Source of the DNA: a virus
Taxonomy: Duplodnaviria; Heunggongvirae; Uroviricota; Caudoviricetes
Strand: one strand, 5' to 3'
Virus record (IMG/VR): IMGVR_UViG_2703718809_000006
Length of the DNA: 59,084 nucleotides
The position numbers and the translations under genes are program-made. This document shows positions 10,718 through 10,783 of the stretch, piece after piece (positions within the stretch are counted from its first letter, which is position 1; every line of letters starts with the position of its first letter). The notes under the pieces are model-generated. The model saw nothing but the letters and a program-made list of their open reading frames with translations, did no database searches and was not told the origin of the DNA.

Positions 10718-10783
10718 ATTGCTCTAATAATTCCATATTTTTAAAACGTGATGTACACTCATCACGTTTTTTATTAGAGCAAT
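10718..10783. promoter_or_regulatory. Inverted pair of C1-operator-like 17-mers flanking a hairpin
   Basis: ATTGCTCTAATAATTCC (plus strand) and TTTTTTATTAGAGCAAT (minus-strand copy) flank the stem AACGTGATG-tacactc-ATCACGTT. Confidence 0.55.

Follow-up and report, generated by a model that had tools for sequence, protein, structure and literature searches.

The immunity repressor C1 of phages P1 and P7 acts as a monomer. Its operators are asymmetric 17-bp matches to ATTGCTCTAATAAATTT with a nearly invariant core (T3 G4 C5 x C7 T8 A9 A10 T11), and this is the criterion for a P1/P7 C1 operator that is applied here. About 22 such operators are dispersed over P1, and their published consensus is the one that the initial annotation of the DNA studied here had used (PMC8546580). 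In GenBank, 20 monovalent C1 operators are annotated in the P1 record (AF234172), and the P7 record (AF503408) adds a hypothetical operator, Op(pro). Op86a and Op86b are listed as OpmgRa and OpmgRb, with Op86a/b given as the former name; the notes on them read 'controls expression of pmgR and pmgS' and state no method. The Op86a/b pair and the operator set are thus already known, on the basis of the GenBank annotations and one open-access paper (PMC8546580). A full-text literature search, which had the primary P1 operator papers outside its reach, returned nothing relevant on these operators or on C1 looping.

The window, by which we mean the whole 59,084-bp stretch of viral DNA that was analysed, is collinear with P1 (71461->94800->1->31836) in a whole-window BLAST search against the P1 reference rebuilt from AF234172, with several segments replaced. 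Because it is 100% identical to Salmonella phage SJ46 at 10–12 kb (where it is 99.3–99.7% identical to P1 and P7) but 95–98% identical to SJ46 outside this region, the window is, as judged by alignment, a mosaic punavirus of the P1/P7/SJ46 type. Four segments are without P1 alignment (13110–21612, 33007–34704, 46489–48877, and 52179–53513). The largest replaced segment, 13110–21612, is a P7/SJ46-type accessory region with upf and ea22-like genes, and 33007–34704 puts about 1.7 kb in place of the P1 res-mod (EcoPI) genes. The element that carries the operators also encodes the cognate C1, a Coi open reading frame, and Lxc:

27970–28821, minus strand: c1, the cognate repressor, 281/282 identical to P1 C1.100
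28932–29141, minus strand: coi, the C1 inactivator, an open reading frame at the position of P1 coi (94193–94402)
34705–34953, minus strand: lxc (bof), a co-repressor that enhances C1 binding, with a translation identical to P1 Lxc

The single difference between the window C1 and C1.100 lies near residue 193, which is G in the window and C in C1.100. Presumably this is the thermosensitive substitution of c1.100, in which case the window repressor would be wild-type. A search of C1 against Pfam and PDB sequences gave no match and no relative of solved structure.

The initial annotation had reported C1-operator-like 17-mers across the window, and these are real. With at most three mismatches, ATTGCTCTAATAAATTT matches at 11 places in the 59,084-bp window, where 0.23 would be expected (7094-, 10718+, 10767-, 12859+, 24642+, 28916-, 29380-, 29463+, 31500+, 42121+, and 45966+), and none of 100 dinucleotide shuffles gave 11 matches. 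The exact 11-mer ATTGCTCTAAT is present in nine copies, against about 0.03 expected. For the position weight matrix scan that had been proposed as a check, the matrix was trained solely on six P1 operators beyond the P1 span of the window (Op51, Op53, Op55, Op68, Op72a, and Op72b), the operators of the window being left out of the training set to guard against circularity. The matrix, independent of the window in this way, recovers the sites already found by consensus match. At 15 bits or more, 14 window sites are found against 0.46 in first-order Markov simulations; at 19 bits or more, the count is 8 against 0.03 simulated. None of the four segments without P1 alignment holds a credible C1 operator. 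Sites at 18486, 21215, 48795, and others, which score 10–13 bits in non-P1 segments, were rejected as operators, since they lie within noise (3.8 simulated at 12 bits or more).

Window sites were assigned to P1 operators by local alignment, as follows:

7094–7110, minus strand: Op82 (O26), equal to P1 78528–78544 (minus); 22.2 bits
8001–8017, minus strand: Op83 (Oppp), CATGCACTAATTAATTT, equal to P1 79435–79451 (minus); 16.9 bits
10718–10734, plus strand: Op86a (OpmgRa), ATTGCTCTAATAATTCC, equal to P1 82152–82168 and P7 84533–84549; 19.1 bits
10767–10783, minus strand: Op86b (OpmgRb), ATTGCTCTAATAAAAAA on the minus strand, equal to P1 82201–82217 (minus) and P7 84582–84598 (minus); 19.8 bits
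12859–12875, plus strand: Op88 (OpmgT), equal to P1 84293–84309 with one substitution; 25.0 bits
24642–24658, plus strand: Op94 (Olpa), which controls the late-promoter activator gene lpa, equal to P1 89904–89920; 15.4 bits
28905–28932: bivalent Op99ab at Pc1 (Oc1b, 28905–28921, plus; Oc1a, 28916–28932, minus), equal to P1 94166–94193
29088–29104, minus strand: Op99c (Oc1c), equal to P1 94349–94365 (minus); 9.9 bits
29380–29396, minus strand: Op99d (Oc1d) at P1coi, equal to P1 94641–94657 (minus); 22.5 bits
29463–29479, plus strand: Op99e (Oc1e), equal to P1 94724–94740; 20.9 bits
31024–31040, plus strand: operator-like site ATTGCTCTAATTCTTTG upstream of c8, unannotated in P1 and P7; 15.1 bits
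31500–31516, plus strand: Op2a (Oref), equal to P1 1962–1978; 17.0 bits
32166–32182, plus strand: Op2b (Omat), CATACACTAATAAATAT, equal to P1 2628–2644 with G4 changed to A; 16.0 bits
42121–42137, plus strand: equivalent of Op(pro), ATTGCACTAATGTATTT, at P7 20923–20939 ('hypothetical operator Op(pro)'); 17.0 bits
45966–45982, plus strand: Op21 (Ossb), equal to P1 21015–21031; 24.0 bits

Ten of the coordinates given in the initial annotation match named operators of the P1 and P7 GenBank records base for base (Op82, Op86a, Op86b, Op88, Op94, Op99a, Op99d, Op99e, Op2a, and Op21). Every site that it listed, except 31024 and a spurious 31512, is a 'phage repressor C1' protein_bind feature in P1 AF234172, in P7 AF503408, or in both. 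Most of its site list therefore stands, with two corrections: the sites given as 31499 and 31512 are a single site at 31500–31516, and the site at 31024 has four mismatches to the consensus. The list was also incomplete, lacking 8001- (Op83), 28905+ (Op99b), 29088- (Op99c), 32166+ (Op2b), and 42121+ (Op(pro) of P7). A second copy at 31513 was rejected; it is a weak match of 10.1 bits, and the TATAAT within it is the annotated -10 element of P2ref in P1. From this correspondence of sequence and position, it is very likely that these motifs are operators of the P1/P7 immunity repressor C1, of the dispersed, asymmetric 17-bp kind, and that the pair in focus is Op86a/Op86b.

The initial annotation had added the caveat that the TTAGTGCA-type sites at 7094 and 28916 might be Lpa late-promoter elements and not C1 operators. 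In favor of this reading, a distance of only about 25 bp separates Op82 from LP26 and LPpmgL, which are divergent late promoters. However, an Lpa-dependent late promoter is recognized by a -22 box, AAGTGACT(T/A), with a -10 hexamer following after about 4 bp, and 11 of the 11 annotated P1 -22 boxes read A(A/T)(G/A)T(G/T/C)A(C/T)T (consensus AAGTGACT), unlike TTAGTGCA. No such box is present at 7094, at 28916, or at 10700–10800; the -22 boxes of the window lie away from the operator sites, at 25213 (LPpac), 32216 (LPmat), 42206 (LPpro), 45930- (LPlyz), and 57190- (LPdar). In addition, 7094 and 28916 are the annotated Op82 and Op99a, and A at position 6 is found in 5 of 19 accepted operators (Op72b, Op82, Op83, Op99a, and Op2b). 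The Lpa reading of the two sites is refuted, and we leave it next to no probability.

Three of the listed sites deserve separate description. The site at 31024–31040 (plus strand), ATTGCTCTAATTCTTTG, has a perfect 11-nt core, and the start codon of c8 follows 17 bp downstream. At the same place, P1 and P7 have ATTGCTATAATTATTTG (ATTGCTATAAT), with no operator annotated in either record; their C7-to-A change creates TATAAT. The perfect core is present in 56 of 63 matching IMG/VR contigs, so P1 and P7 are of the minority type. In most natural P1-like elements, 31024 is a possible extra C1 operator that would control c8. The site at 42121, ATTGCACTAATGTATTT, falls within the 5' end of darB, and the LPpro -22 box follows about 85 bp downstream; P1 has no annotation for this site. 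Its position 6 is A, as in accepted operators, and is C in P1 and P7 (17.0 vs 15.4 bits). In Op2b of the window, CATACACTAATAAATAT, the nearly invariant G4 is replaced by A (P1 reads CATGCACTAAT); A is otherwise found there only in Op72b. Control of mat by C1 could be weaker in this element as a result.

A T-rich tract (...tNatttttaa..., 0.4–0.9 bits) follows most of the 19 P1 operators at +19 to +25, with information comparable to that of operator positions 16–17. The tract is present by Op86a (10735–10742) and by Op88 (12876–12883). It is absent by Op86b, because the hairpin described below occupies that place. The tract may belong to the site of recognition or bending, or it may be a promoter spacer that the operators have in common.

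Between pmgQ and pmgR is a gap of 81 bp, which holds Op86a and Op86b. Besides the two operators, the features of the site are:

10015–10716, plus strand: pmgQ/hdmD, glycosyltransferase-like, the last gene of the upstream unit
10719–10747, plus strand: PpmgR, a predicted sigma-70 promoter with -35 TTGCTC at 10719–10724 and -10 TAAAAC at 10742–10747, taken from the P1 annotation at 82153–82181 ('predicted')
10743–10770 (to 10772 with T6), plus strand: hairpin, AAAACGTGATG / TACACT loop / CATCACGTTTT, folding at -13.0 kcal/mol
10798–11016, plus strand: pmgR (P7 shtA), 72 aa, the first gene past the operator pair
11018–12280, plus strand: pmgS (P7 shtB), a 420-aa coiled-coil protein

Op86a starts 2 bp beyond the pmgQ stop codon, which ends at 10716. 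Op86a and Op86b are inverted, with a 32-bp spacer (49 bp centre to centre), and each satisfies the definition of a C1 operator with an exact copy of the 13-mer ATTGCTCTAATAA, which recurs at many loci besides these two. In a bivalent operator, inverted 17-mers overlap with an 11-bp offset; Op86a and Op86b, 32 bp apart, do not form one. A Shine-Dalgarno-like AAGGTG at 10788–10793 is positioned ahead of the pmgR start at 10798. The initial annotation had placed the pair before the coiled-coil gene at 11018, but the gene immediately downstream is pmgR (10798–11016), and pmgS is the second. Its suggestion of tight repression of the downstream genes agrees with the GenBank note that the pair 'controls expression of pmgR and pmgS'.

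The hairpin that had been noticed between the inverted operators is likewise real. Its stem consists of an 8-bp core, ACGTGATG/CATCACGT, with four G-C pairs, or of 11 bp when A-U pairs are counted, and its energy is -10.3 to -13.0 kcal/mol. The 101-nt context of the hairpin folds at -27.9 kcal/mol (z = -4.8). The hairpin begins 27 bp past the pmgQ stop and runs into six T residues (10767–10772), the complement of which is the non-consensus 3' end of Op86b, AAAAAA. A stable stem-loop followed by T6 at the end of a transcription unit has the structure of an intrinsic terminator, and the hairpin looks like a putative intrinsic terminator of the upstream pmgL..ppp-pmgQ unit. A simple terminator scan did not list the hairpin at 10743–10772, and we infer that this is because the maximal stem, including A/T pairs, leaves too few T residues in the tail. 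Across the whole window, no Rfam family reaches its gathering score; a relaxed Rfam search of 10600–10900 gave one chance-level snoRNA match only.

The Salmonella Newport plasmid pCVMN1543 provides a diverged version of the site. Its PmgS is 69% identical, and the end of the upstream gene is heavily diverged. Despite the divergence of the flanking coding DNA, the cores of Op86a and Op86b are both unchanged in pCVMN1543. The hairpin core reads ACATGGTG/CACCATGT there, against ACGTGATG/CATCACGT in the window, and the pCVMN1543-type haplotype carries two compensatory changes of stem pairs (G-C to A-U and A-U to G-C). Over 19 distinct variants, 97% of the stem cells are paired. Compensatory pairing is thus found in the stem, with the changes confined to one lineage and amounting to one or two events, so that they give weak support.

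An IMG/VR scan for an inverted operator pair with any 20–50 bp spacer gave 120 contigs, all of them this locus, with a total length of 65–67 bp (66 in almost all) and two hairpin haplotypes. This set is uninformative on operator conservation, because both operator arms were required for selection. A genome-contig search with PmgS gave two 99%-identical loci only and no diversity. At a distant PmgS-like locus of Citrobacter pCfr13-1 (about 20% identity), the upstream terminator is of an ordinary kind and an inverted repeat resembling the operators is lacking; this locus, which probably has a different repressor system, is uninformative.

These data bear on the possibility that the inverted pair does no more than form the outer arms of a long palindromic terminator, with its operator resemblance due to chance. 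The arms do pair on RNA, extending the hairpin to 13 + 11 bp (-27.9 kcal/mol). However, they are exact copies of ATTGCTCTAATAA, which recurs elsewhere, and ATTGCTCTAAT is found nine times against about 0.03 expected. Moreover, the inner stem changes by compensation in pCVMN1543 while the arms are wholly unchanged, and therefore the arms are under sequence constraint and not pairing constraint. Chance resemblance is very improbable. A stem that appears to be under pairing constraint, with arms that appear to be under sequence constraint, is the pattern expected of an RNA terminator between two protein-binding sites.

The predicted promoter PpmgR overlaps both elements, its -35 TTGCTC lying within Op86a. 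Its -10, TAAAAC (TAAAGC in pCVMN1543), is weak, without the conserved final T, and a consensus scan found no sigma-70 promoter in 10400–11100. Alternatively, the gap would hold no promoter, pmgR-pmgS would be expressed by read-through from the Op82-controlled and Lpa-dependent upstream promoters, and the C1 sites would be roadblocks that reinforce the terminator in lysogens. The negative promoter scan and the poor annotated -10, with its further change in pCVMN1543, are consistent with this alternative, as is the lack of a late-promoter box near 10700–10800. Against it, a -13 kcal/mol terminator ahead of pmgR, a gene reported to be essential, would starve pmgR without a local promoter. In addition, the operator's TTGCTC is annotated as a -35 in the P1 record also for P1ban at Op72a and for P2pmgT at Op88, and the same spacing to TAAAAC recurs at Op88. 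We consider expression by read-through somewhat unlikely and keep PpmgR in the working proposed below.

We infer C1 occupancy, promoter activity, and termination at Op86a/b, and we hold this specific working with lower confidence than the identity of the sites as C1 operators. The hairpin with its T6 run (10743–10772) would end transcripts from the upstream pmgL..pmgQ unit. The weak promoter with its -35 TTGCTC inside Op86a would transcribe pmgR-pmgS, starting in or just past the hairpin loop. The RNA of PpmgR would then lack the 5' arm of the hairpin, and for this reason it is proposed to escape termination. In lysogens, the -35 would be occluded by a C1 monomer bound to Op86a, and a second one, bound to Op86b (about +12 to +28), would block elongation and any read-through. 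Together, the two sites would silence the head-completion gene pmgR and pmgS until C1 is inactivated. The pmgR-pmgS unit is in keeping with a function of the lytic cycle that C1 silences.

The initial annotation had also raised looping. In such an arrangement, the C1 molecules on Op86a and Op86b would contact each other, and the 32-bp spacer would be looped or sharply distorted, possibly with the aid of extrusion of the palindrome, to give cooperative repression. The inverted arms at constant spacing (total 65–67 bp in 120 contigs) are consistent with it, and Heinzel et al. in 1994 reportedly described C1-mediated looping between Op99ab and Op99c/d. On the other hand, the GenBank records label both sites monovalent, protein-mediated loops form easily only at lengths far above that of a 32-bp spacer, and the low divergence of the set, together with the embedded hairpin, accounts for the constant spacing. 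Looping between Op86a and Op86b is pure conjecture, and we regard it as quite improbable.

A broader version of the proposed working treats the composite as a dedicated insulator and switch. The terminator would stop pmgL-pmgQ transcription, the embedded promoter would escape it, and two C1 monomers would clamp the ends (possibly cooperatively over 32 bp), leaving pmgR-pmgS separately timed and purely C1-gated. As a separate point, most wild P1-like elements would have an extra, unannotated C1 operator ahead of c8, lost in the laboratory references P1 and P7 by the C-to-A change that creates TATAAT. We put it forward tentatively and think it unlikely in this full form.

The analysis confirms the window to be a P1-family phage-plasmid in which the C1/Coi/Lxc immunity system is intact and the set of reference operators is complete, which helps in calling the element functionally temperate. 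The new points are small: a nested putative terminator with compensatory changes, a likely extra c8 operator in most relatives, and a T-rich extension of the operator motif. They would refine the regulatory map of P1, leave the picture of P1 immunity unchanged, and have little import beyond annotation.

The closest counterparts of the locus are P1 Op86a/b (AF234172) and P7 Op(sht[a])/Op(sht[b]) (AF503408), which have the same 17-mers, orientation, spacing, and flanking genes. There is no substantive difference from either, the 2-kb region being 99.3–99.7% identical. The bivalent operators Op72ab (ban) and Op99ab (c1) resemble the pair in that one promoter region (a predicted one at Op86a/b) is served by two C1 half-sites in inverted orientation, and at Op72a, as is predicted at Op86a, the operator TTGCTC also serves as the -35. 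They differ in that their 17-mers overlap with an 11-bp offset, whereas a hairpin lies between Op86a and Op86b, and the records treat these as two monovalent sites. The Op88/OpmgT cassette (12859–12888) is identical to 10718–10747 at 25 of 30 positions, with an operator, a 17-bp spacer, and TAAAAC in both; Op88, however, is a single operator without a partner or a hairpin. The likeness of the two 30-nt cassettes suggests a duplicated or convergently constrained promoter-operator module. Like rho-independent terminators with A-tract/U-tract symmetry, the hairpin has an 8–11 bp stem, a 6-nt loop, and a T6 tail directly past a stop codon, with an A4 tract upstream. Unlike in ordinary rho-independent terminators, the T-tract of this putative terminator is common to a repressor site, and the whole element is nested in an operator pair.
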